A stretch of DNA of 64,000 nt from a virus (lineage: Duplodnaviria; Heunggongvirae; Uroviricota; Caudoviricetes), in IMG/VR virus record IMGVR_UViG_2703718817_000003; one strand, 5' to 3'. A program made the position numbers and the translations under genes. Position 1 is the stretch's first letter. Each line of letters begins with the position of its first letter. Under the pieces are notes generated by a model. It was given only the letters and a program-made list of their open reading frames with translations. It made no database searches and had not been told where the DNA came from. This document shows, in pieces, positions 1 through 57,664 of the stretch.

Positions 1-1
1 C

Positions 2-208
2 CGCAACCTGGTCAACGCTTACCGGATACCCACTGATACGCATGAGTTTTTGACGCCAGAGGGGGTATTGTCGCGTCGTACTATTGTGGCCTTATCTCCC
101 TTCATGAATGCCTTTACCCTGATGATGTCGGAGGCTGAACACCGAGGAAAACGCTGGTATCACCCAAGGATGGGACAATTCCAGGTGATCGGTTGGGGAG
201 GCGAGTGA
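2..208 (+). CDS. 3' fragment of a Rha-family regulator/antirepressor-like gene, truncated by the window edge; ends at TGA 206-208
   Basis: Frame-2 translation RNLVNAYRIPTDTHEFLTPEG...KRWYHPRMGQFQ parallels the C-terminal part of the 41191-42132 protein (CRNLVNAYRIPTDTHEFLTPDG...KRWYHPRMGLFQ); DNA roughly 80-90% identical by eye. Confidence 0.5.
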   Translation, partial: RNLVNAYRIPTDTHEFLTPEGVLSRRTIVALSPFMNAFTLMMSEAEHRGKRWYHPRMGQFQVIGWGGE

Positions 209-405
209 TGGACATCATGCAGGCGGTAAAAAAAATCAGGGAAGGACAGGCTGAAGTGTGCCGCCGTAAAGCATGGAGTGTTGGTATATGGATCTGGCCT
301 GATAATTGCTCTACTACCGGATGGTTTTGTATTAATGGATGCCAGATCCGGGAAGTCGATTTATCGATGGCGGATGCAGTCGGTAATGATTGGATCGTAA
401 CTTGA
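208..405 (+). CDS. Small DUF2829-like (Tad2-family-like) domain protein; ATG 208 overlaps the upstream stop (TGATG)
   Basis: ORF track 193-405 (TTG) with in-frame ATG at 208; product MDIMQAVKKIREGQAEVCRRKAWSVGIWIWPDN...NDWIVT resembles the C-terminal domain of the 41191-42132 protein and the DUF2829 pattern (K-x-RR-x-W ... DW-I-V). Confidence 0.4.
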   Translation: MDIMQAVKKIREGQAEVCRRKAWSVGIWIWPDNCSTTGWFCINGCQIREVDLSMADAVGNDWIVT

Positions 406-436
406 AGTGTGATGCCCCGGCCTGGCCGGGGCTTTT

Positions 437-922
437 TCATGCCTCATTAGTTGAGGTTGCTGCGTCTCCGACAGGTAACAGAGCTGTATTGCGTGGTTCG
501 CCAGCAGGCCAGCGATAGCCAGACACTCTTGATGTTGGGAATGCGCGAATATTAACAGCATCCCCCTGGTTCCCACCCAAGACAAGCAGATCGCCATTGG
601 CGCGGCGTCCGACAACAAAGCCTACATGCCCACCGCCTGCGCGAGTAAATACAACGATACATCCGTATGCCGGTGTATCTAATTTCTCGCCCCAATCCAG
701 ATAGGATTTTGCCGACTCAAATCTTGTTGAGCGGATACCTACACGTTCCAGCATTGCACCAACAAATGCAGCGCACCACGGCGTTTCGTCGTCTTTAATT
801 CCGCTGCGCTTAATATCCCGCCAGAACTGGACGATCTCAGGATTGTGTTTCGCTCCTTTTATTTCGGTGACTCCAATATTTTTACGGGCCTCAATAAGCC
901 AACGAGGTTCATTGTTTGCCAT
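437..922 (-). CDS. CHAP/NlpC-P60-like cysteine peptidase domain protein (TIGR02594-like)
   Basis: 161 aa ORF; Cys in TPWCAAFVGAM and His in GGGHVGFVVG are spaced as in CHAP-type peptidoglycan amidases. Confidence 0.45.
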   Translation of the reverse strand: MANNEPRWLIEARKNIGVTEIKGAKHNPEIVQFWRDIKRSGIKDDETPWCAAFVGAMLERVGIRSTRFESAKSYLDWGEKLDTPAYGCIVVFTRAGGGHVGFVVGRRANGDLLVLGGNQGDAVNIRAFPTSRVSGYRWPAGEPRNTALLPVGDAATSTNEA

Positions 923-1059
923 ATATTTCTCCCGGTCATGGGTTAATAAGTAGGCAAACTATGGTGAGTATATGATTTTGACGGTAGTATCGTTCATCCC
1001 TGAAAATAACATTCTCCATACCCTCTCAAACCGTACCGCTTAAGGCGGATTTAACGGTT

Positions 1060-4000
1060 TTGAGGGGGCTTCCTTTGGACAAAATAATTGATTCAATTAG
1101 CCAGGCCACCAGCATTGGGGCGCTGATTGAAATTGTTAGTCGGTTGCATAAACCGCGAGCTGTAGTGACCTTTGGCGTTAAGAAAGTCGATGGCGTCAGT
1201 ATTCAGAAAACACGCCGGGCAGCAAACAACGCCGCAGTAAATCTTCTTAATTCCCTTCCGCCTGGCTTCGATGGGGCGAAATTAACTGACGAACAGCGTC
1301 AGATTCTTGCCGGGTATACCGGTGAAGGCGGCCTGACAGATGGTGAGGGCAGCCAATACGAATACTATACGCCACAGTTTATGGCAGAAGGTATATGGGA
1401 TCTCTTCGGCGACTACGGTATTGATAGCGGTCACGTACTGGAACCGTCAGCAGGCACAGGTATTTTCCAGGAGACAAAACGGCAGGGCATGATAATGACC
1501 AGCGCCGAACTGTCTCCGATCTCCGGTCGAATAAACCAGCTTTTGCACCCGGAAGATGATGTGAATATCGGGGCGTTTGAGGCGCTGGCGGCGAAAGATG
1601 CAATGTATGACCACGCAGTTGGTAACGTACCGTTTGGCGAAGGGCGTTCCGGCGTCGCCGGGCTTGATCCGGCATATGCAAACGAGAAGAACGTTGGCAA
1701 TTATTTTGTGCTGCGCACGATCGACAAGGTTAAGCCTGGTGGACTAATTGTATTGGTGGTGCCGAATGGCATGACCGATGGTACGAAATACAAAAAATTG
1801 CGCGATAAAGTCAGCCGTAAAGCGGAATTTTTGGGCGCGCATCGTATGCCTTCTGGTACGTTCAGCGAATCCGGTACAGATACCGTGGTGGACGTATGGG
1901 TATTGCGTAAACACCCGGAAACCTTCCTGGAGATGATCCCCGACACGGATGATGCAACGCTCAAATCGGCAAACGTCCTTTGGGATACCTTCCTCAAAGG
2001 GAAATGGTTTACAACCGAAGGGAAGCGATTTGTTTACGGCGACATGGAACGCACCAGCTTCCGCAATACCCTGGTGGTGAAAAAGGACGGTCGTGTATCC
2101 AATGAGTCGATGAAAACCGCGTTATCACGCCGCTTTGAAAGCCGTATTAATTGGGATTTGCTCGGAGTAACTACCCAGGCATGGCAGGGCGCAAAAGTAG
2201 GGGATAAGCGTCTTGTAGGCGGTATCTGGCATGAGTTTGATGGCCTGAAATGGGTTAAGGACACGACAACCAAATCCTCCGCGCTTGATGTAAGTCGATA
2301 TGGTGTTTCGACGTTTGGCGATCTGCAGATCGCGTTCCAGTCAACAAACGGGATTCTGGCTTTGTCATGGGACCAGATATCGGCGATCGCGTCCGACTAT
2401 CCATCGGTTGTCAGTGATGAAGTGGCAGCAATGATTCGCTTTGCTGGCAAACAGCGAGAAAAAGACAGGGAGCGCGTTATGCGCGGTGCACTGATAGGTC
2501 AGTTGATCAACAAGGCACTTGATTTGCGTAACCTGGGGGTGAACGTTGATGACAAACTGGCAGATGCATCCCGCCTGGCGGCAGCAGAAGTTGCGAAGTA
2601 TGGACCACCGCACGCGATTAAGCTGAATGGGCTTGCAGAAGCTGGAGCTAAAAACTGGATGACGTTCACTGGCAATGTGAAACAGGATGGTTCCACTTCT
2701 GACCTTCTGGCAGGGCGACTTGATGTAACGGATGGTGCTGCCGGTATTGACTTTACACGTCCGGAACAAGTGATAGCACATCTTTTCAGTGATGTAGCCC
2801 TTTATCCTATAACGCTGGGCGACTTTCGTGAGGCGTTTGCTGGTGAACTGCCAGAGGACGACGACGCGGCCCTTGAATACCTGGCGAAATTTGATGATAT
2901 CGCTATTGATGGGTATGGCTGCCTGCTGCCGATGGACCGCGCCACCAGCGGCGATATTGCAACCAAAACAACATTGCTGGTGGGCTGGCGTGATGCGTCA
3001 ACAGGTGAACAGAAAGCGAACTTTGAGCGTCAGTTGGCGAAAATCGAAGAGAAACGCATTTTCACGCCACTAAATAAAGTCACCGTTAATCTGAACGCCC
3101 GCTGGCTGGATCGCCGCTTGATAAAAGAGTTCCTGGCAGAGCAGGGCTATGACGAGTTTAAGTACACTGAACCTGATCTGAAGGTCGTCGATGGCATTCT
3201 GGTATCTCCGGACGATTACGAAGGTAAGGACGGGGTATTTACCGGCTATCAGCTACGAACCGTAAACGGCAAAAACGGGAATGAGTTCAAGAAGGCCAAC
3301 AATAAAGACGGCTTCCTGAACCAGTTAGAAAACTACCTGAACGGTGTTAAACCGCGTGGGCAGAACGCTAACGAGTACCTGGATAAAATTGCTCAACTGG
3401 AAGTTAGCTTTAACGACTGGTTACGCACCCACCCGCAGGCGGATCAGATAGCCCGTGACTATAACGACGCATTCAATGGCTTCATTCCGTTCACGCACTC
3501 TAACGCACCGCTTGGCCTGGAAGGGATTAGTGGAAAGCGCATTCCTCTGACTTATCAGAATGAAGAAGTTCGTCGCTTGTCAGAAGATGGGCGCGGCATC
3601 ATGGGATTTGGTACCGGGCTGGGTAAAACCACGACCGCGCTTGCGCTTGAGGCGTATAACTTCGAAACAGGTCGTACTAAACGCACGTGTATTGTTGTTC
3701 CGAAGGCGGTTTATCAGAACTGGTATCACGAGGCACAGAGCTTCTACAGTGCTGATGCCTTCGCCAATATGATGTTTATCGGTCTGGATGAAGTTCGTGA
3801 TGAAGACGGCAATATTCTGACCGCGCCGGTGCTTGATGAAAATGGCGAACCCCGCCTCGACAGTAACGGGCAGCCTCTTACCAGAAATGTTGTGAAAGAG
3901 TCCGCCAGCGCCGTTATCGTTCAGCGCATGAACATGATCCCGTCGTCAAATTGGCGAACGGTCATCATGACAAAAGAACAATTCGCGTCTATCCCGCTAC

Positions 4001-7000
4001 GAGAAAAAACCATCGAGGAGAACTCACAGCAAGCTGTCTTTAATGCTGTGGAAATGGGGCGTCTTGACCTGGCGTCTGGTAAACACCGTGATGCGCAGAA
4101 GAAGAACAAGATTAAGGATCAGGCCGCGAATACCGGTACAACGAAGAAGCAGAATATCCCGTACTTTGAGGATATGAACTTCGATAGCGTGATTGCCGAC
4201 GAGGGGCATAACTACCGCAACTCCTTTAATGCCGGGCGTGAAGCGGGACAACTGGCATATTTGCCTAACCCGGCAGTATCCAAGATGGCCCGCGACATGG
4301 CTGTAAAAGCTGCGTACATGATGAAACGCAACAACGGGCGTGGTGTAGTCATGCTGACGGCAACTCCGCTGGTGAACAGTCCGATTGATGCCTTCAACAT
4401 GCTGTCTACTGTCATTCCGCAGGAAGAGTGGATGCGCATGGGCATTATTACGCCGGATGATTTCGTTCGCGTGTTCGGCAAAACAGCCACAGTTCAGGTT
4501 CAGAAAATTTCCGGTGAGGTGGAAGAGAAGCAGGGGCTGGTGGGCTTCCAGAACCTTGATGGTCTGCGTGGTATTTTCCACCGTTGGACCACTCTGAAGA
4601 CTGCCGCAGATGTCGGAGCGACGGTTAAAATTCCCGACATCATCGAGAACACCTTGCAGATCCCGATGACAGGGGAGCAGGAGGCTGCTTATGAAGAGCT
4701 TCGTAAGCGTGCTCAGGAGTTAAGTCGCAATGATGAGCTGACAGTCGATGAAAACGGGCATATCACTAACGACAAACCGGATGATTTCATCTTCTCCATC
4801 ATCCGCGACATGGATAAGGTTGCTATAGATCCGGATCTGTATGCCAGTGCGATTACATTCCAGTTCCCCGTTGAGCTTGCAGACAAGGTAAAAGCTATTG
4901 CGGATGCCCTGCCAAAAGTCGCAGGCGGTAAAGTGGCAGATGATGCAGACGAGGCCGAAGAAGACGGCGCTGGTGGACTGGTCAGTACGCGTACCAGCAA
5001 GGTAGTGAAGACCACCTTTAGTGAACATCCGGCGCATGTTGAAATACGCGCCAGCATTGAACTGGAAGCTGAAATACTGAAGGCCATTGCTGCCGCCGGG
5101 ATTGATCTGCAGCAGGTATCACACCCCATCCCGCCGAAGTATGCCGCGCTGATCGAAAACCTTCGTGAAGGTTTGAAGAACGGTAAACAAATTGTCTTCA
5201 TTGATGAAAAAGCCCAGCACCAGAAGCTGCGCCGTATTATCGCCAGTGCACTGCAAATGCCGGAGCAGGAGATAGGCATTATCAATGCGACGACCGTTAG
5301 CCAGGCTGGCGGCATCAAGCTGAAGAAGGTGAATAAGCCGACTGAACCTACTCCGAATAAAAACGGTGAATACAAAGAAGGGGCATGGGAAACCTACTAC
5401 AGCAAACTTGCCCAATATGAGGATTATCTCTCAGCTAAAAATGATGCTGGCCTTGAGGGTATGGAAGGCATTGCCGCCGACTATAACGAAGGGCGCACGC
5501 GCATCATTATCTGTAACAAGAAGGCTGAAGTAGGTATTAACCTGCATATCGGGACAACCGATATCCACCACCTGACACTACCCTGGACACCAGCCAGTAT
5601 CGACCAACGAAATGGGCGCGGTGCGCGCGTAGGTTCACCGCAAGAGAAGGTCAATGTTCACTACTATTGTGGCAAAGGCACATTCGACGACTTCCGTCTG
5701 GATACGCTGAAACGTAAGAAAGACTGGATCAAGATGGTGATGACCTCCGACATGTCAGAGATCGCCAATGGTGATGCGGATGATGCTGATGAACGCGCCA
5801 TTATGCTGGCGGCAAACCCGGAAGAACGCCGCGCAATCATGGCTCGCCAGGCGCAAGAGCGCGAAGAACGTCTGAAACTGAAAGCACAGCGCGAGGCCAA
5901 CAATGCTCTCGATATCTACCTGAAAGCGGCAAACGCCGCTGGAAAAGATATCGGCATGATGGAGACAGAACTGAAAAGCGCGATGGAACAGATAGAGTAT
6001 TACCAGCGAAATCTTGACGACCTGATAAAAGCGGGTACGAACAGGAATGGGCAAAAATTCGCGCTTGAGCAGTTGAGTAGCTACAGAAAACGTGCGCGGG
6101 TGCTGCGGTTTGCGATCACCAGGGCAAAAGACGCGGATACCATAATGAAACGCTCTCGTGGTGATGTGGAGCGAGCTATTAAGTCTGGTGTGCTGGATAT
6201 CAGTATCGATGTTATTCAGAACCCACAGGAATATATGCGCACTGACAAGAATATCCTGTTGCATAAAGGTAGTTATTACCGTGCAGTCATTGATGATCGC
6301 GAAACAACAGCGATTGTCCGGGTGGAAAAAATTGACGGTGAAAAAGCACAATACCTCTGCCGTATCGCCTGGCTGGATAGAGCAAGTCGTTACGCTCGAT
6401 CACCGGGGTCAATCGTTACATTGCCGTTTGACTCTGTGATTGAAGCGGTAACTTTTGAAGAGGGGGTAGCTGAATCGCGCGCAACGGCTGCGCGTGGTGT
6501 TCAGTGCCACCAGCTATCAACAATACTTACTCGCGATCAGTTCTATGATGCTATTCGCAATGGGGTAATGAATGTTATTGCTGGTAAACCTGGTAATGCA
6601 TGGGGCGGTGGGTCAGCTATTAAATACTGGGCATATCGCACAGATGATGGTCAGATCGCGCTGTCATCGGCCTATGATGGCGTGATAGGCCAAAAAATCG
6701 GGCGAGCATCGGATATAGCACCTGAACGATGGATATATCCAGATGGCAACGATGAGGCGCTGAAGCGTGAAGTGGCAAAAATACAAGCCAGTGATAACCC
6801 GCTGAATATCGTGGACGGCGAGGGATTCCTCCAGGCATTGTATGGGTATGATTACATCCAGGGAATGCAGGCATGGGGCGCACAGGCAACGATGGATGAT
6901 GTTGTCCAGGAGTTCGAAAACTGGATGGCTGGGCGTGGTCTGTCAGGTCGTTCGCTTAATAAAGTCACTTCTGAAGATATTCTTAGCTTGTTCCGCAAAC

Positions 7001-51165: not shown

Positions 51166-51178
51166 AGTTTTGCGAAAC

Positions 51179-52084
51179 ATGAGATTAGTCGCCTTTAAAA
51201 ACATATACGTCTATCGCCTTGCCCGCGAAATTAAACTGGACTCAACCACCGTTAGTGATGCCTTAAGCCAATTCACATTCACTCCATGCGCATCACAAGA
51301 AATGGCAAAAGTCGGATGGGTGCCGGTTCTGGCTGACAACCTGATCCATGAATACCACGGTTTTCTACTTCTCCAGCAACAGCGAGAAATTAAGCTCCTG
51401 CCCTCTCATGTCATTAAGGAGGAAGTGCAGAAAAAAGTGGAAAAGCTCGAAAATGAGCAATCTCGTAAGCTGAAGAAGTCGGAAAAAAACACCCTGAAGG
51501 ATGAAGTTCTCCACTCTTTGTTGCCTCGCGCATTCACTCGCAAATCATTGTCGCGAATCCTTATTGATCGCGACAACTATCTGGTCTTCGTAGAAGCTTC
51601 CAGCGCCAGAAAAGCAGAAGAAATGCTGGCGCTCTTACGTAAATCACTTGGCAGCCTGCCAGTGATTCCATTCACGCCGATAGAACCGCTCGAAATGACT
51701 ATGACCGAATGGTTCAAGTCAACATTTCCTCAAGGCTTTAAAGCAGGCGAAGAAGCCATATTGAAATCGCTGTTCGATGACGGCGGCGCAGTTCGTTGCA
51801 AGAAAGTAGACCTACAGTCAGAGGAAATAATGACTCATATTGAAGCCGGAAAAGTTGCAACAACAGTTGCAATCAACTGGCAGGACCGCGCGACCTTCAG
51901 GTTAAACGATGATATGAGCATCAAAGCACTGACGTTTTGCGATGATCTCTATGACCAGAACGATGACATCGACCGTGAAGATGTTGCCCAGCGATTTGAT
52001 GCTGACTTCATTCTGTTCACAAGCGAATTATCCGCGATGTTTAGCTCGCTGGTGGAGGCCATTGGCGGTGAAGCAGAGCATTAA
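51179..52084 (+). CDS. rdgC: RdgC-like recombination-associated protein
   Basis: Colinear with E. coli RdgC as recalled (FKNIYVYRL, LKDEVLHSLLPRAF, LALLRKSLGSLPV, IEAGKV, DQNDDIDREDVAQRFDADFIL); ATG 51179 preferred over TTG 51170. Confidence 0.8.
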   Translation: MRLVAFKNIYVYRLAREIKLDSTTVSDALSQFTFTPCASQEMAKVGWVPVLADNLIHEYHGFLLLQQQREIKLLPSHVIKEEVQKKVEKLENEQSRKLKKSEKNTLKDEVLHSLLPRAFTRKSLSRILIDRDNYLVFVEASSARKAEEMLALLRKSLGSLPVIPFTPIEPLEMTMTEWFKSTFPQGFKAGEEAILKSLFDDGGAVRCKKVDLQSEEIMTHIEAGKVATTVAINWQDRATFRLNDDMSIKALTFCDDLYDQNDDIDREDVAQRFDADFILFTSELSAMFSSLVEAIGGEAEH

Positions 52085-52100
52085 TAACCGACCGCTGGCG

Positions 52101-52748
52101 GTGAGTCTTTGTGATTATACAGGGAATATGGTTTCCCCCTGGCTGGAACACGGCATTGATGCAGTCATTGTCGATCCGCAACACCAGGAGTCCGGCAGCC
52201 AATTGATGGAGTCAGGTGCTGTACTCACACGTATCAGCGCAATTATTGACAGTGATGAGGTCTACAATTTCCTTCGGAAAAATTTGCACAGAGTTGTATT
52301 TTTAGCCGGTTTCCCTCCATGTACTGACCTGGCTGTATCTGGCGCACGCTGGTTCGCAGATAAAGCGAAAAAAGATCCGGTTTTCCAGTTCAAAGCAATG
52401 CAGGTTGTCTGGCAGTGTTACGACATTGCAAAGATGATTGGTTGCCCGTACATGATTGAAAACCCGGTCAGCCAAATATCGACATTCTGGCGTAAACCTG
52501 ATCACATATTCCATCCTTATCACTTCACTGCATATTGCAAGGAAGACAATTACACCAAAAAAACATGCCTGTGGAGCGGACAAGGATTCATCATGCCAAC
52601 TCCGCGAATCGACGAGTCGTTAGGTGATCCAGACAACCGAATACACAAGGCACCGCCAGGACCTGAAAGAGCGAATTTTCGTAGCGCAACACCTTACGGT
52701 TTTGCAAGAGCTGTATTTGAAGCAAATAAGGAGGGAATCCGTGGCTGA
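52101..52748 (+). CDS. Short DNA (cytosine-5)-methyltransferase-like protein
   Basis: Motif IV-like GFPPC...SGA and motif VI-like YMIENPV; shorter than typical C5-MTases; GTG start inferred. Confidence 0.45.
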   Translation: MSLCDYTGNMVSPWLEHGIDAVIVDPQHQESGSQLMESGAVLTRISAIIDSDEVYNFLRKNLHRVVFLAGFPPCTDLAVSGARWFADKAKKDPVFQFKAMQVVWQCYDIAKMIGCPYMIENPVSQISTFWRKPDHIFHPYHFTAYCKEDNYTKKTCLWSGQGFIMPTPRIDESLGDPDNRIHKAPPGPERANFRSATPYGFARAVFEANKEGIRG

Positions 52749-52815
52749 TATTGGTGCTAAATTTATTTCTTATAGCGACAATCATCGTCCTGCGGCGGAA
52801 GCCACTATCAACCAT

Positions 52816-53658
52816 ATGCGACGTATTCGCTCGGAGGACGAATTTGATCGCCCCGTCTTTAAGTGGGTCGGCGGCAAATTTTCTGCACTGCCCATTATCT
52901 TCGAACACCTGCCCCACGGAAAACGGTTGATAGAACCTTTCGTTGGAGGTGGCGCTGTTTTCACTAATGCCGGATTTAAAAGCAACCTGCTGAACGATAT
53001 CAATAATGACCTGATTAACTTCTATCAGACATTGCAGCGTGAAGGGCATTCTCTTATCACACTGGCATATCGTTTTTTTCAGGATTACAACTCTGCTGAT
53101 GCATTTTTGAATGTTCGCAATGCATTCAACAATGGTGCTTATGATTCTCTTCACCATGCGGCGGCGTTCCTGTATCTCAATCGTCATTGTTTTAATGGCG
53201 TCACTCGCTATAACCGTAAAGGAGAGTTCAACGTCGGATATGGAAAGCAGAAATCTCCCTACTTCCCTCTCGCGGAAATGGAGGCGTTCCTGGATGACGA
53301 TATTTCAAAGTATTCGGAGTTTGTGTCCGGCGATTTTGCTGGTGTAATTGAGGCTGCCGGGAATGATGATGTGATTTTCTGCGATCCCCCCTATGAACCA
53401 TTGCCTGACACTACCGGATTTACAAATTACTCAGGGCATAGCTTTAGGTTTGAAGATCAACAACGGCTGGTGTCACTGCTGGTGGATGCCCACAGACGCG
53501 GAGCGAAAATTGTGATAACAAACAGTGGTGCGCCTAACATTCGCGAACTTTACGTTGGCAATGGCTTCAAGGTGTATCCTATGCCATCCCGTCGCTCTGT
53601 ATCCTGTAAAGCATCAACGCGAATGATAGCTAACGACATTATAGCCACGCTTAATTAA
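52816..53658 (+). CDS. dam: Dam-family DNA adenine (N6) methyltransferase
   Basis: FKWVGGK, EPFVGGGAV, NDINNDLINFY and catalytic DPPY; alternative in-frame GTG start at 52741. Confidence 0.8.
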   Translation: MRRIRSEDEFDRPVFKWVGGKFSALPIIFEHLPHGKRLIEPFVGGGAVFTNAGFKSNLLNDINNDLINFYQTLQREGHSLITLAYRFFQDYNSADAFLNVRNAFNNGAYDSLHHAAAFLYLNRHCFNGVTRYNRKGEFNVGYGKQKSPYFPLAEMEAFLDDDISKYSEFVSGDFAGVIEAAGNDDVIFCDPPYEPLPDTTGFTNYSGHSFRFEDQQRLVSLLVDAHRRGAKIVITNSGAPNIRELYVGNGFKVYPMPSRRSVSCKASTRMIANDIIATLN

Positions 53659-53660
53659 GA

Positions 53661-53683
53661 AAAGCCCCATATGGGGCTTTTAT
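53661..53683. terminator. Bidirectional terminator
   Basis: AAAAGCCCCAT-ATGGGGCTTTTAT perfect palindrome. Confidence 0.6.
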
Positions 53684-53793
53684 AACATCAAACAAGCACC
53701 GTTACGGTACACTAATAACACCATTCTGGTACTAAAAAGGAACCAAAGCAGCCTCAAAATAACACATGGAACCAAAACGGTGTTATTCCGGCG

Positions 53794-54081
53794 TCATTTT
53801 GTATCCTCAGACTCTGCAAGCATGAGGATAGCATGGCGGATCATATTCAATTTGCTGCGATTATGCTTTTTGCTTAACGCATCAAGTACCTGGTACTCGT
53901 ATTCATTGAAGCCAACACGAATGGATTTAAAATCACGTGGGGCGTCCTTATCGAGCACTTTGTTGTCTTCTGGTTGCTCACCCGGCACCAAATCAGCTTT
54001 GCTGGCAAAAGCCTCAATTCGGCGTTCAAGATCGAGGTCTTTTACTTCGGGGGCTTTTACCGATTTACGAGGCTTAATCAC
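53794..54081 (-). CDS. ParG-like ribbon-helix-helix centromere-binding protein (type Ib partition)
   Basis: 95 aa; C-terminal RHH-like FKSIRVGFNEYEYQVLDALSKKHNRSKLNMIRHAIL; follows a small ParA-type ATPase gene. Confidence 0.55.
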   Translation of the reverse strand: MIKPRKSVKAPEVKDLDLERRIEAFASKADLVPGEQPEDNKVLDKDAPRDFKSIRVGFNEYEYQVLDALSKKHNRSKLNMIRHAILMLAESEDTK

Positions 54082-54715
54082 TTAATAACTCCTTAACCAA
54101 CATCTGGATTTCACCTTTAGCTTTCCCGTTGTCCATCTCAACAACGCCCTTCCCTTCAGCCATACAATCGCGGTAAACCTTGCGATCGCGAATGATGGTT
54201 TTCAGCAACTTCAGTTGCGGATATTCAGCAAGGTACTCTTTGGCCTCATTGGCTTCATTCACAACCGGATTGGATGGGGCCATTGTTAAGACTGCGCACG
54301 CCTTAATGCTAGGATTAGGCATCAGATCCAAAGCCTCTTCAAAGACTTCAACAAAATGCGCCAGCGTGTCTAAATCTGGCTGAGATGGCCTGAATGGAAC
54401 AAGCAAAACATCCGCCGCAGTAATACCGGTGCGCATCTCTTTGCTATCACGACCAGCGGTATCAACAACCACAAATTCATAACGCTTGTCCAGATCAAGA
54501 AGTGTTTCACGAATATTCCCAAACTTCTGGACGCAATGAATTACTGGAGAAACCTCTGCCGCATTACGGTCCGATGCCCAACGGGCAGATGTTCCTTGCT
54601 TATCTGCATCAAGTAGAACTACGTCCTTATTTGCGCGGGCAAGCTCCGCACAAATGTTTACGCTGGTGGTTGATTTGCCACAGCCACCTTTTTGGCTGGC
54701 TACCAATATAATCAT
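54074..54715 (-). CDS. parA: ParA/ParF-type partition ATPase
   Basis: 213 aa; deviant Walker A SQKGGCGKSTTS; Walker B VVVDTAG. Confidence 0.85.
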   Translation of the reverse strand: MIILVASQKGGCGKSTTSVNICAELARANKDVVLLDADKQGTSARWASDRNAAEVSPVIHCVQKFGNIRETLLDLDKRYEFVVVDTAGRDSKEMRTGITAADVLLVPFRPSQPDLDTLAHFVEVFEEALDLMPNPSIKACAVLTMAPSNPVVNEANEAKEYLAEYPQLKLLKTIIRDRKVYRDCMAEGKGVVEMDNGKAKGEIQMLVKELLSD

Positions 54716-55000
54716 ATCCGTTCCTCGGTGTTATTTTGGTATCAAAATGGTTCCAAACAGAAGCCTTATTGATGCGGTTTTGGCTCTATAGTGGAGTCAC
54801 TATGCTTTGCAAAAGTATAACACTAAACACTCTAAATTTGCCCTCTGTTGCATCCTGTTTAACACGAAATCAGCCTCAAAGTGGAACCAGACACAAAACA
54901 GCACCATAACAACACCGTTTTGGTACTAAAAGAACACCAAATTAGAACCATAACAGTATAAAAAAGGCTGCAAATTGCAGCCTTTGAAGATGTAGATTTG
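54716..55000. repeat. Repeat-rich centromere/operator-like region upstream of parA
   Basis: Repeated GGTACTAAAA, GGAACCA/TGGTTCC and AACACC motifs (54726-54757, 54871-54938); related repeats recur downstream of the parG-like gene at 53720-53790. Confidence 0.4.
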
Positions 55001-55366
55001 TTAATCAGGGAGTGAGTTTGCCAAATTCTGTGCAGAGCGGCTTTTCGAAACGCCAGGTTTTTTAACATCCGCTGAGGCAGAGGGGTTTCCTTCAGGGTTT
55101 TCCCGAACTTCAGGCGAAATTTCAAGAAATGAAACCAGCATTTTTCTGATCACTTCAGGGCTATTATCACCGGATAAAAGCGATGCCAACATGGGAGGTA
55201 ATCTGCTATCAACCTCGCCAAGAGCGATACCTGCAAGCATCGCTGTGCGCGCCATATCATTGCGATCTCTTAATGGATGGCCCTCAAGTTTTGCATCAGC
55301 ATATTGCTCACTGGCGTTAAGACCAGGACGAAGATAAAACAATACTTTTCGACGTTCCTGAGACAT
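55001..55366 (-). CDS. parR: ParR-like centromere-binding adaptor (type II partition)
   Basis: 121 aa ORF immediately downstream of the ParM-like gene. Confidence 0.5.
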   Translation of the reverse strand: MSQERRKVLFYLRPGLNASEQYADAKLEGHPLRDRNDMARTAMLAGIALGEVDSRLPPMLASLLSGDNSPEVIRKMLVSFLEISPEVRENPEGNPSASADVKKPGVSKSRSAQNLANSLPD

Positions 55367-55376
55367 GGCAACCTCA

Positions 55377-56336
55377 TCAACCGATAGATTTTAGACCATA
55401 GACAAGAGCAAGTTGTGGATCATCAGCAACGAAAAACCTATCGTCACGAATGTTTACCTGCTCACGGATAGCATCAGCAACAAGCGGCGCGCCGCCACCA
55501 ATGACCATAACATGCGTGTATCCTTTGAAATCACTGATCACATCCAGTACGCGTGTACGGAGTCGTTCTATGCTTGACGAAATGGCTTTCTTAACATCAT
55601 CAATAGCAGACGGATCGTTAATATTGTCGGTCAAATAATCCTCATCATCACGATTAATGATTAATTGATCGACATTATAATTAGAGGTTTCGGTATTCGC
55701 TTTTGCAAGTGCCTGTCTGACCTCTTTAGTTACCAGCGAAACGCCGAGATTAGAATCGCCAAATACGCGAGAAACGGCGGTCATTTGCCCGGCGACCATC
55801 GACACATCCAGAGTAGTCCCACCAAGATCAACAATAAGCACAGAATGCGCTGGCACAAGGCTGTCGCACAGACCGATCCCTGCGGGTATTGACTCCGGGC
55901 GCACAGTCACTTTTTTGATAGTAAAAACCTGACCTTTGTTAAGGGTGACTGGTCGCATCAGGCTGGCCTTTTTCCGCTCAATATTTTTCATGTTGTATTG
56001 TGCGTCGTCGTCATAAAACTCTGCCAGTGGCAACGTGACAACTATTTCCACTTCTTGAGGCTCAATGCCACTTGTAAGCAGGGCATGATGAACAGCAAGC
56101 ACATTAAGCGGGCTGTATTGCCATTCAACGTTATTCGTCGGCAGCACATCCGGCGAGATCAAGTCATATGAATATTTTTCGTCATCAATGATGTAGTTAA
56201 ACGGCTTTCCTGCGCCAAATGTGGCGGACCATCCACGTTTAAAACTGTTCGGACAGATATGGGTTCGAGTTTCCCCGTCTTGTTCCCACAGCATTTTGAT
56301 ATTGGTAGAACCATCGTCGATAAAAATGCGCATCAT
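55377..56336 (-). CDS. parM: ParM/StbA-like actin-type segregation ATPase
   Basis: Start at ATG 56336 (MMRIFIDDGSTNIK...); actin-fold phosphate motifs (IFIDDGSTN, VLIVDLGGTTLD, VMVIGGGA). Confidence 0.75.
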   Translation of the reverse strand: MMRIFIDDGSTNIKMLWEQDGETRTHICPNSFKRGWSATFGAGKPFNYIIDDEKYSYDLISPDVLPTNNVEWQYSPLNVLAVHHALLTSGIEPQEVEIVVTLPLAEFYDDDAQYNMKNIERKKASLMRPVTLNKGQVFTIKKVTVRPESIPAGIGLCDSLVPAHSVLIVDLGGTTLDVSMVAGQMTAVSRVFGDSNLGVSLVTKEVRQALAKANTETSNYNVDQLIINRDDEDYLTDNINDPSAIDDVKKAISSSIERLRTRVLDVISDFKGYTHVMVIGGGAPLVADAIREQVNIRDDRFFVADDPQLALVYGLKSIG

Positions 56337-56393
56337 ATTGCTCCACTTCTGAGACACATTTGAGAAAGAATTGAATTTTATATGAGAAAACAA

Positions 56394-56585
56394 AATAAGA
56401 CCAGAAGTTAGATAGCGTAAAAAGCATCAAACTAGAGACGTAAAAGAGACACAAAAGAGACTTAGATGATACATGATGTACCCACGATACCCATTTGAGA
56501 CAAATCAGAGACAAATATGAGAAGTAAGAAATCTGAAGAGTGAAAATCACAAAGTGGAGAAGATTTAAGAAAAAGGAGGTGTTAG
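56394..56585. repeat. parC-like iteron array upstream of parM
   Basis: AGAGAC-containing units at roughly 11-bp spacing (tagagacgtaa aagagacacaa aagagacttag ... tttgagacaaa tcagagacaaa). Confidence 0.5.
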
Positions 56586-56870
56586 ATGAGTGCAATAGCG
56601 ACCAGTGACACAGTTTGTTCTGGTCATGGAGGATTCCCTCCGCGACCTGTAGCAGAAACAGTTTCCTGGTTTACCGTAAATGGAAAGCCAGTGGTTGTAG
56701 ATGGGGGAGCGTTCCCCAGCCATACAGACGGAAATAGCGCGCACCCCGGATCAGCCGTATCGACGCGCTCATGGTTTGCAATAGGCGGAAAAGGAGTTGT
56801 TTGTGTGGGAGATCCCCTTTCTTGTGGCTCAGTCATCGCCAATGGTGAGGCAATTTTTCAGGTGTCATAA
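56586..56870 (+). CDS. PAAR-like spike-tip protein
   Basis: 94 aa; Gly/His/Cys-rich with repeated motifs (GHGGFPP..., VVVDGG, HPGSAV, CVGDPLSCGS); strong AAGGAGG Shine-Dalgarno. Confidence 0.45.
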   Translation: MSAIATSDTVCSGHGGFPPRPVAETVSWFTVNGKPVVVDGGAFPSHTDGNSAHPGSAVSTRSWFAIGGKGVVCVGDPLSCGSVIANGEAIFQVS

Positions 56871-57664
56871 TGCTTGATTCAATCGCTGAAGTTAATGCAT
56901 TCAAAATTCTAAATGCATCAGGCACAACTACGCCTGCATCTATCACGCTAAGTAAAACAGCGTCATCCAATGCCAGTTCTCTGGAAGAGAATATCCAGGC
57001 TCTTATCCTGAAGGATAAAGCATACCCGGCGTCGGTGGTTTCATGGGTCAATCAGCTTTCTGTCTTTTCAGAACAACTGAAAACTGTCAGTGCAGAAGCA
57101 ACCAATTTAGCCGACTCGCTGTCTCCGTATACTTCGCCAACTGAATTACTTCAGATGAAAATTGGCTGGGAATGTTACGTCAAAGGTAATGAGTTATCTC
57201 CTGCGCCAGAATTTGCTCTCGTAACAGTTATGGGAGATACCCTGCATCCGCAATCGCTTATTGACGCGTTGGCTGCATTTGAACTGGTGCCAATCACTTC
57301 AGCCATGGCCGCTATAAATGCAAAAGTTCAGGCGTCAAGCGGGGAGGCTTCAGGCAACGGAAGTTCCACCGGAACAACACAGCAACCAGCACTAACAGAA
57401 GAAGAGATCAAAGCACTAAAAGACGCTGTGGAAGCAGCAACAGAACAAATAAATGCAATAAACAACACGAGCAGTAGTCTCTCAACACTTGCACAGCAAG
57501 TTAAGGACTCTACCGGAAAAGCCAAACAGGGACTGGAAAATGCTGTAGCTATTACGTTAACCGGTTCTCTACTGGGCGATGAAGTAATGAGTCCGGCAAT
57601 CAGTTTGATCATGCCACAAGGTGTAATCGATGCGCTCCAAAGCAACACTAAAAAGGAATCATAA
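56870..57664 (+). CDS. hypothetical protein
   Basis: 264 aa ORF, ATG overlaps upstream TAA. Confidence 0.5.
   Translation: MLDSIAEVNAFKILNASGTTTPASITLSKTASSNASSLEENIQALILKDKAYPASVVSWVNQLSVFSEQLKTVSAEATNLADSLSPYTSPTELLQMKIGWECYVKGNELSPAPEFALVTVMGDTLHPQSLIDALAAFELVPITSAMAAINAKVQASSGEASGNGSSTGTTQQPALTEEEIKALKDAVEAATEQINAINNTSSSLSTLAQQVKDSTGKAKQGLENAVAITLTGSLLGDEVMSPAISLIMPQGVIDALQSNTKKES

Follow-up and report, generated by a model that had tools for sequence, protein, structure and literature searches.

Adjacent ParMRC and small ParA/ribbon-helix-helix cassettes on a D6-like phage-plasmid

Genes of the locus

The window analyzed here, a 64-kb stretch of DNA, belongs to a D6-like plasmid-prophage (phage-plasmid), a relative of Escherichia coli phage D6, and has a 92.8-kb sister plasmid with which it shares 99.4% identity. 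On the minus strand, four intact ORFs at the positions given in an earlier note on this DNA form a complete type II ParMRC system and a type Ib-like pair of a small ParA and a ribbon-helix-helix (RHH) protein, adjacent on one replicon (Table 1). That the two modules are of different types, as that note had proposed, is borne out by Pfam, by structure matches and by a model of the RHH protein. Read along the minus strand, the order is parC iterons, parM, parR, a terminator, a repeat array, a candidate extended -10 promoter, three operator-like repeats, parA, the gene for a 95-aa protein, a second repeat array, and a terminator. The cassettes lie contiguously among P1-like phage genes, with dam and rdgC on one side and homologues of upfC and upfB on the other. 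The terminator between parR and the parA array is strong, and parMR and parA are therefore likely to be separate transcription units; it is kept in all D6-like variants examined, even beside unalignable flanks. A search of positions 53000-57200 against Rfam at E values up to 1 returned no RNA family.

Table 1. Positions in the window of genes and cis elements of the two cassettes
Feature	Position	Strand	Basis or description
Likely bidirectional terminator	53660..53681	both	Perfect 11+11 palindrome AAAAGCCCCAT/ATGGGGCTTTT; common to parA operon (-) and convergent dam (+)
Downstream array, putative second centromere-like site	53695..53790	-	Five hexamers at 53695-53739, two at 53768/53779
Candidate centromere-binding protein, 95 aa	53794..54081	-	RHH model, ParA linkage
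parA, deviant-Walker-A partition ATPase, type Ib-like, 213 aa	54074..54715	-	Pfam, ParF structures, phrog_164
Promoter-proximal operator-like block	54727..54755	-	GGAACC, GATACC, AACACC (minus strand), 11-bp spacing
Candidate extended -10 element of parA (TGTTATACT)	54814..54822	-	Read by eye; absent from consensus-scan list
Distal upstream array	54883..54950	-	GGT(G/T/A)(C/T)(C/T) hexamers, 11-bp register at 54900-54944, plus one at 54883
Intrinsic terminator of parMR transcript	54960..54985	-	10-bp stem, 5 G-C pairs, then T run
parR (stbB), predicted type II centromere-binding adaptor, 121 aa	55001..55366	-	Pfam, pB171 ParR structure, phrog_8671
parM (stbA), actin-like segregation ATPase, 318 aa	55377..56333	-	Pfam, R1 ParM structures
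parC-like centromere and parMR promoter region	56351..56530	-	11-bp iterons, GTCTC core (GAGAC on plus strand)

ParM matches StbA_N (2.4e-69, 232.8 bits) and the ParM C-terminal domain (9.8e-56, 188.6 bits) in Pfam as well as the R1 ParM structures (E 1e-110, 54% identity), and the ATPase aspartate motif (IIDLGG/D170) is conserved; its start was set at the second ATG, 7 nt past a GGAG RBS. The parR gene begins 10 nt past the parM stop, and its product matches Pfam Plasmid_stab_B (3.1e-14, 53 bits against a cut-off of 25), the ParR of pB171 (PDB 2jd3, 3.9e-7) and phrog_8671, a partition protein family. The ParM domains and aspartate motif, the ParR gene downstream and the iterons upstream together point to a type II ParMRC system.

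The small ParA exceeds the Pfam cut-offs for AAA_31, CbiA and MipZ, belongs to phrog_164 (ParA-like partition protein, 9e-56), and finds its best PDB match in the TP228 ParF structures (3e-18, full-length alignment). It carries a deviant Walker A motif (QKGGCGKS) together with VLLDAD and FVVVDT and has no N-terminal DNA-binding (HTH) extension. It is 43 to 45% identical to IncI- and pB171-style partition ParAs. With 158 bits against the NCBIfam equivalog NF041546 (ParA_partition), whose cut-off is 180 bits, it appears from its score to be a relative of this group and not a member.

The 95-aa gene starts with GTG and overlaps the parA stop by 8 nt. Its product gave no direct sequence match in Pfam (including ParG), NCBIfam or the PDB, the last searched at E values up to 10; against the pB171-type ParB of the IncI-gamma/K1 plasmid CP082591 the BLASTP E value was 2.1, and with the IncI-type partner there was no alignment. 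Judged by sequence, it is not a ParG homologue. A simple homologue search returned close relatives only, and the wide set came from an exhaustive HMMER search; an AlphaFold2 model from 8 close sequences alone reached a pLDDT of 58 and was set aside. The protein models as an RHH fold with a basic N-terminal tail (MxKxR, with R5 nearly invariant), a helix at residues 16 to 30, and the C-terminal ribbon-helix-helix at about residues 52 to 92.

With a 13-sequence alignment as the query, related loci were found in diverse gammaproteobacteria, and ParA lay directly upstream of the 95-aa homologue in 24 of 25 unrelated genomes or loci (57 to 70% identity among the ParA orthologues); neither ParM nor ParR was found within 3 kb of the homologue at any of the 25. 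The pairing of ParA and the RHH protein is thus an obligate one across the family. The description of the pair as ParFG-like holds for its architecture, a small ParA without an HTH followed directly by an RHH partner with a flexible N-terminal tail, but not for its sequences, since ParA is closer to that of the pB171-style double locus (43%) than to ParF and the 95-aa protein resembles neither ParG nor pB171-type ParB.

Iterons, hexamer arrays and promoters

The iteron array ahead of parM that had been noted earlier is real: the 257 bp preceding parM hold six copies of GAGAC, where 0.12 would be expected. It spans about 56351-56530, however, and not the 56394-56585 first given, the last 55 bp or so of which are the upstream region of a divergent PAAR gene. 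The copies form two sets of three units with 11-bp spacing (56497/508/519 and 56435/446/457) and a 40-bp start-to-start gap between the sets, and two or three degenerate units (56351/362/384) lie beside the parM RBS. The parC region holds the densest 120-bp window of GAGAC in the 64 kb, and in the sister plasmid phased chains of this motif occur only at the corresponding parC position.

Related repeats on both sides of the parA operon, another observation of the earlier note, take the form of GGT(A/G/T)C(C/T) hexamers in an exact 11-bp register (starts at 53695/706/717/728/739, 53768/779; 54727/738/749; 54900/911/922/933/944). The boundaries had to be revised: the downstream array begins at 53695 and not at 53720, and the upstream repeats fall into two blocks. 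The distal upstream array contains a 44-nt repeat that is 75% identical to 53704-53747, and a TTTGAGGCTG box at 54871-54880 recurs in the downstream array. The proximal, operator-like block ends at the parA RBS GAGGAA (54718-54726) and is conserved in D6 and in the related locus L008. Between the two blocks, GTGTT repeats (54818-54832) overlap the candidate -10 element, whose TGnTATACT is common to the window, D6, L035 and L036 despite differing neighbor sequence; at about 54783-54812 there is another sigma-70-like pair, TTGCAA-16-TATAGA.

Chains of at least three phased hexamers occur in the window only at the parA operon flanks and in the sister plasmid only at the par locus. Shuffling the window 200 times gave a mean of 0.055 such chains and none with five sites, but the in-window statistics are partly circular because the motif was defined from the same locus. 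The independent test was family-wide: across the ParA-RHH family, the operon flanks show a 35- to 47-fold enrichment of phased chains, although under strict criteria they are found on a given side in only 8 to 9 of 21 unrelated family loci. D6, L008, L035, L036 and L037 have downstream arrays of the matching motif class although their sequences cannot be aligned, as do about 9 of the 21 unrelated loci. Variants with unalignable intergenic DNA keep both the motif class and its placement on the two sides of the operon. Arrays of short repeats adjoining the operon, as putative centromere and operator, are what a type Ib system would have.

The flanking arrays were also considered as replication iterons, a role that was rejected since the RepB iterons (TGAGGGCAAATCTTACACC) are unrelated and about 11 kb away. 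An apparent third binding cluster at 1873-1992, with six motif hits, was dismissed because the hits are out of the 11-bp register.

Conservation and probable working of the two cassettes

Comparison with related phage-plasmids, which the earlier note had suggested, finds both modules in about 109 to 113 D6-like plasmids (113 with parA and the RHH gene, 109 with parMR, at an identity of at least 80%). Both cassettes are under purifying selection, with a dN of 0.038 and a dS of 2 to 2.9 for parM (against D6 and L008) and a dN/dS of about 0.055 for parA (against D6). ParR and its iterons differ jointly between D6-like alleles (GTCTC versus (A/T)TCTCA), which is expected of a working protein-site pair. 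In CP069647 only parR is listed in this region, probably through frameshifted or pseudogene calls in the assembly.

We read the region as the segregation locus of a D6-like prophage, in which two complete partition cassettes follow one another on the minus strand, each transcribed on its own, and give this reading a probability of roughly three in four. By analogy with R1 and pB171, ParR dimers would bind the GTCTC iterons placed around and after the parMR promoter, and the bound ParR would both repress this promoter and build a segrosome capping ParM filaments, whose ATP-driven growth would push sister plasmids apart. In the other cassette, RHH dimers may coat the 11-bp-phased hexamers, which would lie on one face of the DNA. 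The three hexamers over the 5' UTR and RBS of parA would serve autoregulation, and the arrays upstream of the promoter and just downstream of the operon are laid out much like parC1 and parC2 of pB171 par2. With its basic N-terminal tail, the RHH protein would stimulate nucleoid-bound ParA-ATP, leaving the plasmids evenly spaced over the nucleoid. Each cassette would stabilize the prophage, and their contributions to stability are probably additive or dependent on conditions, as they are in pB171 and pINV; redundancy between them is plausible.

It is unlikely that only one cassette is a working partition system and the other a redundant passenger or a decaying remnant of recombination. In the window neither cassette is damaged, purifying selection on both is strong, both keep their cis repeats and are retained in the D6-like plasmids counted above, and ParR and parC have co-diverged and not decayed. 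There are nevertheless signs that one can be done without: in the D6-like record CP115379, parA and the RHH gene are undamaged but parM is apparently frameshifted or truncated, so that some lineages may manage without the type II module unless this is an assembly error, and deleting one of the two systems of pINV or SCP1 has little effect in the laboratory (PMC6519299; PMC13245405). The allele patterns also point to cassette-level recombination in which parMR and parA-RHH modules reassort, and are hence separable units.

Still less likely is that the ParA/RHH pair serves something other than plasmid partition, the RHH protein as a transcriptional regulator and the ParA-like ATPase in another role, be it prophage or lytic gene control, another cargo, or plasmid interference. 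ParA/MinD-type ATPases position many kinds of cargo, the RHH family is of "unknown function" in PHROGs and has no curated family, and ParA is under the NCBIfam equivalog cut-off; moreover, the "cop" listed in the pYU39_89 partition locus may be the 95-aa gene, which would hint at regulation (PMC6799933). However, a two-gene cassette with adjoining phased repeats is the standard type Ib layout, and the identity of ParA to IncI- and pB171-style ParAs is to partition proteins. Other plasmids carry homologous ParA-RHH cassettes: in one case the directly neighboring gene encodes a RepB initiator, and another case is a Marinobacter plasmid of 13 kb. PADLOC gave no meaningful defense match (a single weak P-loop match), and since the arrays are confined to this locus on the sister plasmid, no dispersed regulon is apparent.

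The replicon fusion raised in the earlier note, with each of two replicons bringing its own partition system, is similarly improbable: the occurrence of the type Ib cassette alone on other plasmids, once beside the gene of a RepB distantly related (28% identical) to D6-like RepB, and the view that other multi-par plasmids arose by inter-plasmid recombination (PMC13245405) would suit it, but the only plasmid initiator annotated in the sister plasmid is RepB, whose gene lies outside the window some 11 kb away from these cassettes, a lytic RepL being present as well and a second replicon being absent from the annotation, the cassettes are contiguous among phage genes, and the allele patterns are those of small cassette-sized exchanges and not of cointegration.

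With two tandem cassettes as the preferred reading, a tentative extension, which we think rather doubtful, is that they are independently exchangeable modules of partition specificity, and that reassortment of parMR/parC alleles with parA-RHH/array alleles, the latter falling into classes of 80 to 99% nucleotide identity, creates a combinatorial code of partition incompatibility. If this were true, such a code would allow related D6-like phage-plasmids either to live alongside one another and resident plasmids or to oust them, and a prophage with two systems of different mechanism would be protected when a co-resident element titrates one of them.

Phage-plasmids like D6 are widespread among E. 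coli, Shigella and Salmonella, and their stable low-copy carriage depends on loci of this kind. The "hypothetical" orf61-type protein is now placed in a predicted family of RHH centromere-binding proteins with strict linkage to a ParA, and the probable centromeres mapped here offer targets for work on stability, incompatibility and curing.

Comparison with known partition systems

Dual segregation systems on one replicon had been called unusual, a view that does not stand: pB171 and pINV are experimental precedents, and a 2026 survey counted 971 PLSDB accessions in which a type I-RHH and a type II system occur together, and more than one par system in about 19% of par-bearing plasmids (PMC13245405). 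The combination of type II and type Ib is already known and common, and the general picture is unchanged. The pINV plasmid of Shigella flexneri likewise has a type I and a type II system on one replicon, ParAB and StbAB, both functional and partly redundant, but its type I system is P1-like (type Ia, with an HTH ParB) and its two loci are about 90 kb apart (PMC6519299). In our case no large P1-type ParA or ParB is present in the full annotation of the 92.8-kb sister plasmid, as the earlier note had supposed for this replicon; the D6 region shown has none either, and the D6 record lists only StbA, StbB and a "possible ParA".

ParG of TP228 has a flexible N-terminal tail and a C-terminal RHH, an arrangement that the modeled 95-aa protein appears to share. 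The ParA size class and the short repeated boxes upstream of the operon are also as in TP228 ParFGH. The differences are that the partner does not match ParG in sequence, that ParA stands closer to the pB171/IncI type, that a second array lies downstream of the operon, and that the motif and its 11-bp periodicity are not the same.

The parC of R1 has 11-bp direct repeats in two sets (5 + 5) that bracket a core of about 40 bp. The window resembles R1 parMRC in its ParM (54% identical, aspartate motif kept), in the order parC-parM-parR, and in having 11-bp direct iterons in two sets around a core of about 40 bp. It differs in having 3 + 3 clear iterons with two or three near the RBS, in a ParR closer to the StbB/pB171 ParR family, and in an iteron core that varies among D6-like alleles.

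Adjacent type I and type II loci are carried by pB171 (PMC6519299), whose par2 has been used experimentally with parC1 and parC2 flanking parAB (PMC4270457). We compared this layout through plasmid CP082591, which has the same divergent layout, as a stand-in for pB171. Shared with it are the adjacency of type II and type Ib, a ParA of 43% identity with an RHH-type partner gene overlapping or abutting parA, repeat arrays upstream and downstream of the type Ib operon, a ParM of 42% identity and a ParR of 33% identity over the N-terminal 75 residues. In the pB171-type locus the operons are divergent and share one common regulatory/centromere region (PMC6519299), whereas those of the window are in tandem, with a terminator between them and their own unrelated repeats. 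The candidate centromere-binding protein has no detectable similarity to pB171-type ParB, the repeats are GGTACC-like hexamers at 11 bp and not TCATA/ATCACA-type boxes, and the host replicon, unlike pB171, is a tailed-phage plasmid prophage.

A further close counterpart is phage D6 itself (MF356679), in which orf58 to orf61 are the same four genes in identical order, annotated as StbA, StbB, "possible ParA partitioning function" and hypothetical; in the D6-like pYU39_89 the partition system is listed as "cop, parA, stbB and parM" (PMC6799933). The window differs from D6 in its downstream array because it is without glnS, which follows orf61 in D6, and it carries another parR/parC allele, with GTCTC iterons and a ParR that is 58% identical to that of D6 and conserves the C-terminal tail NLA(N/D)SLPD.

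Two adjacent modules of different types

Two adjacent partition modules of different types had been proposed for this replicon in the earlier note, and the identities of the genes bear this out, with ParMR lying next to a type Ib-like pair of ParA and RHH genes. All of the par genes are on the minus strand, where their 5' to 3' order is that of the first rows of the table. ParM matches both Pfam ParM domains and shares 54% identity with R1 ParM, including the catalytic IIDLGG/D170 motif, and ParR scores above the Pfam Plasmid_stab_B threshold and matches the pB171 ParR structure 2jd3. ParA is a 213-aa deviant-Walker-A ATPase (motifs QKGGCGKS, VLLDAD, and FVVVDT) whose closest solved structure is TP228 ParF (3e-18); PHROGs labels it a ParA-like partition protein, and its 158 bits fall below the 180-bit cutoff that NCBIfam sets for the ParA_partition equivalog. 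The note is also right that P1 ParAB is missing, as no P1-type ParA/ParB is present in the annotation of the sister plasmid (complete, 92.8 kb). The only plasmid initiator annotated there is RepB, about 11 kb from the par locus and beyond the end of the window. Replicon fusion, suggested as a possible origin, finds no support.

Features of the par locus and of the variants discussed in the text
Feature	Position	Strand	Remarks
AT-rich region with 11-bp iterons	56351-56530	-	upstream of parM
parM	55377-56333	-	Pfam and R1 ParM matches
parR	55001-55366	-	Pfam Plasmid_stab_B, 2jd3
Strong intrinsic terminator	54960-54985	-	between parR and parA unit
Repeat array, upstream-distal of parA	54883-54950	-	phased hexamers
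Candidate extended -10 element	54814-54822	-	parA promoter
Three further repeats reaching into RBS	54727-54755	-	5' UTR of parA
parA, small	54074-54715	-	deviant-Walker-A ATPase
95-aa gene, overlaps parA	53794-54081	-	predicted RHH
Second repeat array, downstream of operon	53695-53790	-	phased hexamers
Perfect palindromic terminator	53660-53681		common to parA operon and convergent dam
Differing parR/parC allele	window 55001-55366, 56351-56530; locus L001 (phage D6) 5208-5546, 6516-6785
glnS	locus L001 (phage D6) 2069-3730; locus L008 (CP069886) 1-1230		absent at window ~53660-53700

Divergent from the parC region is a PAAR-domain gene (56586-56870, plus strand), a homologue of P1 upfC, and its promoter has to share the approximately 55 bp adjoining the outermost iterons. 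Just upstream and convergent with the par operons (51170-53658, plus strand) are genes for an RdgC homologue, a putative cytosine methylase, and a Dam-family methylase; the longest dam ORF in the window, at 344 aa (GTG start), exceeds the CDS of 305 aa given in the sister-plasmid annotation.

The 95-aa protein had no direct match in Pfam, NCBIfam, or PDB sequence searches, and its PHROG family is labelled "unknown function." An exhaustive profile search with the protein gave about 125 cluster representatives, most of them 65 to 100 aa long. The alignment of this family displays a near-invariant M-x-K-x-R at the N terminus, followed by a short helix and, toward the C terminus, a conserved block. 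The proposal that this is an RHH protein is supported by the AlphaFold2 model built from the family alignment (pLDDT 86.9), by the RHH Pfam families matched by 17 to 21 of 70 members, and by a weak match of the family profile to CopG. The kinship to ParG was, however, overstated, as sequence comparison detected no homology of the protein to ParG or to pB171-type ParB. Since 24 of the 25 loci compared, which come from diverse gammaproteobacteria, have a ParA (57 to 70% identical) directly upstream of the RHH homologue, and none of the 25 has ParM/ParR within 3 kb, we regard the type Ib cassette as an autonomous, widespread two-gene module; in one plasmid the pair adjoins a RepB gene. Its placement beside ParMR characterises the D6 lineage. 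The predicted RHH assignment of the family, which includes D6 orf61, and its strict linkage to ParA in the loci compared are additions made here.

Phased repeats at both modules

GAGAC, which reads GTCTC on the coding strand, has six copies within 257 bp upstream of parM versus 0.12 expected. The copies make up two triplets with exact 11-bp spacing that lie 40 bp apart start to start, and degenerate copies adjoin the parM RBS. The parA operon is flanked by GGT(G/T/A)(C/T)(C/T) hexamers, in either orientation and in an exact 11-bp register; five of them are upstream-distal, three overlie the 5' UTR, and 5 + 2 are downstream. Chains of at least three phased hexamers occur only at the parA operon in the 64-kb window, while 200 shuffles of the window gave a mean of 0.055 chains and none with five sites, and the sister plasmid has phased chains of the two motifs at the par locus only. 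The hexamer motif was derived from this same locus, so the independent test is the comparative one. In 21 unrelated family loci, the operon flanks show a 35- to 47-fold enrichment of phased chains. In phage D6, CP069886, NZ_CP115379.1, AP027414, and a further D6-like variant, the operon likewise has arrays of this motif class to either side, also where the intergenic DNA is not alignable. The observation of the earlier note, including the related repeats on both sides of the operon, is correct and statistically solid, and this map of phased arrays is new here. A reading of the flanking arrays as RepB iterons was rejected, as these iterons are unrelated.

Both arrays contain the exact 10-bp box TTTGAGGCTG (minus strand, 53749-53758 and 54871-54880), which adjoins a stretch of 44 nt with 75% identity from one array to the other, and this common sequence suggests that the arrays arose by duplication. 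In D6, the upstream box is degenerate, and no box of this type was seen in the downstream flank.

Conservation and reassortment of the cassettes

The par region is 85% identical to that of phage D6, 97.5 to 99.4% identical to six non-mobilizable Escherichia coli and E. marmotae plasmids of about 90 to 94 kb, and 94.8% identical to a seventh, with 122 plasmids matched overall. The comparison with related phage-plasmids advised in the earlier note found parA and the RHH gene in 113 plasmids and parMR in 109 (at least 80% identity). Purifying selection on both modules is strong (parM, dN 0.038 versus a saturated dS of 2 to 2.9; parA, dN/dS about 0.055). The genes are annotated in D6 as StbA, StbB, "possible ParA partitioning function," and hypothetical, and the partition system of the D6-like pYU39_89 has been given as "cop, parA, stbB and parM" (PMC6799933).

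The parA-RHH cassette is found too on NZ_CP021720.1 (216 kb) and NZ_MK356558.1 (169 kb), both much larger, with two matching places on the latter; these plasmids may have arisen as cointegrates that join a D6-like element to another plasmid. In NZ_CP069647.1 (94.8% identical), the par region has parR as its sole listed CDS, and rdgC is cut short; both features probably reflect an indel-rich assembly rather than biology. In locus L035 (NZ_CP115379.1), at 4350-5415, parM is seemingly frameshifted, leaving a 261-aa ORF without the first ~58 residues and with no CDS listed; the gene is a pseudogene, or else the assembly is in error. There, parR, parA, and the RHH gene are intact.

Compared with D6 and CP069886, amino acid identity is 93% for ParM, 96 to 100% for ParA, and 96 to 98% for the RHH protein but just 58% for ParR, whose C-terminal tail NLA(N/D)SLPD is kept between alleles. 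The iteron core is GTCTC in the window versus (A/T)TCTCA in D6. Judged from these sequences, the changes in ParR and in parC have gone hand in hand, as a functional protein-site pair would be expected to show, and the allele difference among D6-like sublineages looks like a partition-specificity (incompatibility) switch. AP027414 is 100% identical to the window over parMR and 93.9% over parA-RHH, while CP069886 is 99% identical over parA-RHH and about 80% over parMR, and these opposite patterns indicate that the cassettes recombine as separate units. This evidence for independent reassortment is new here. In D6 and many D6-like plasmids, dam and the RHH gene have glnS (glutaminyl-tRNA synthetase) between them; the window lineage is without it, and its downstream array differs correspondingly.

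Proposed mechanism and known systems

The first cassette would act as R1 ParMRC does: bound to the iterons, ParR would keep the parMR promoter repressed and link plasmids to growing ParM filaments. The second cassette would resemble pB171 par2 or TP228 ParFGH, with RHH dimers bound to the phased hexamers on one DNA face at both arrays. Autoregulation would act through the proximal units and GTGTT units overlapping the -10 element, and nucleoid-bound ParA would be stimulated by the basic N-terminal tail of the RHH protein. Experiments with pB171 par2 have used parC1 and parC2 flanking parAB (PMC4270457).

The earlier note regarded dual systems as unusual, which overstates their rarity: pINV has two functional partition systems (PMC6519299), and a 2026 PLSDB survey counts type I-RHH together with type II in 971 accessions, and more than one system in about 19% of par-bearing plasmids (PMC13245405). 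The closest known system is the double par locus of pB171. In an IncI-gamma/K1 plasmid with the pB171 layout (CP082591), parMR and parA-CopG are divergent, whereas in the window the two are in tandem with a terminator between them and unrelated repeat sets, and the binding protein and repeat motif differ from the pB171 type. The locus is an uncharacterised example of an already known double par type.
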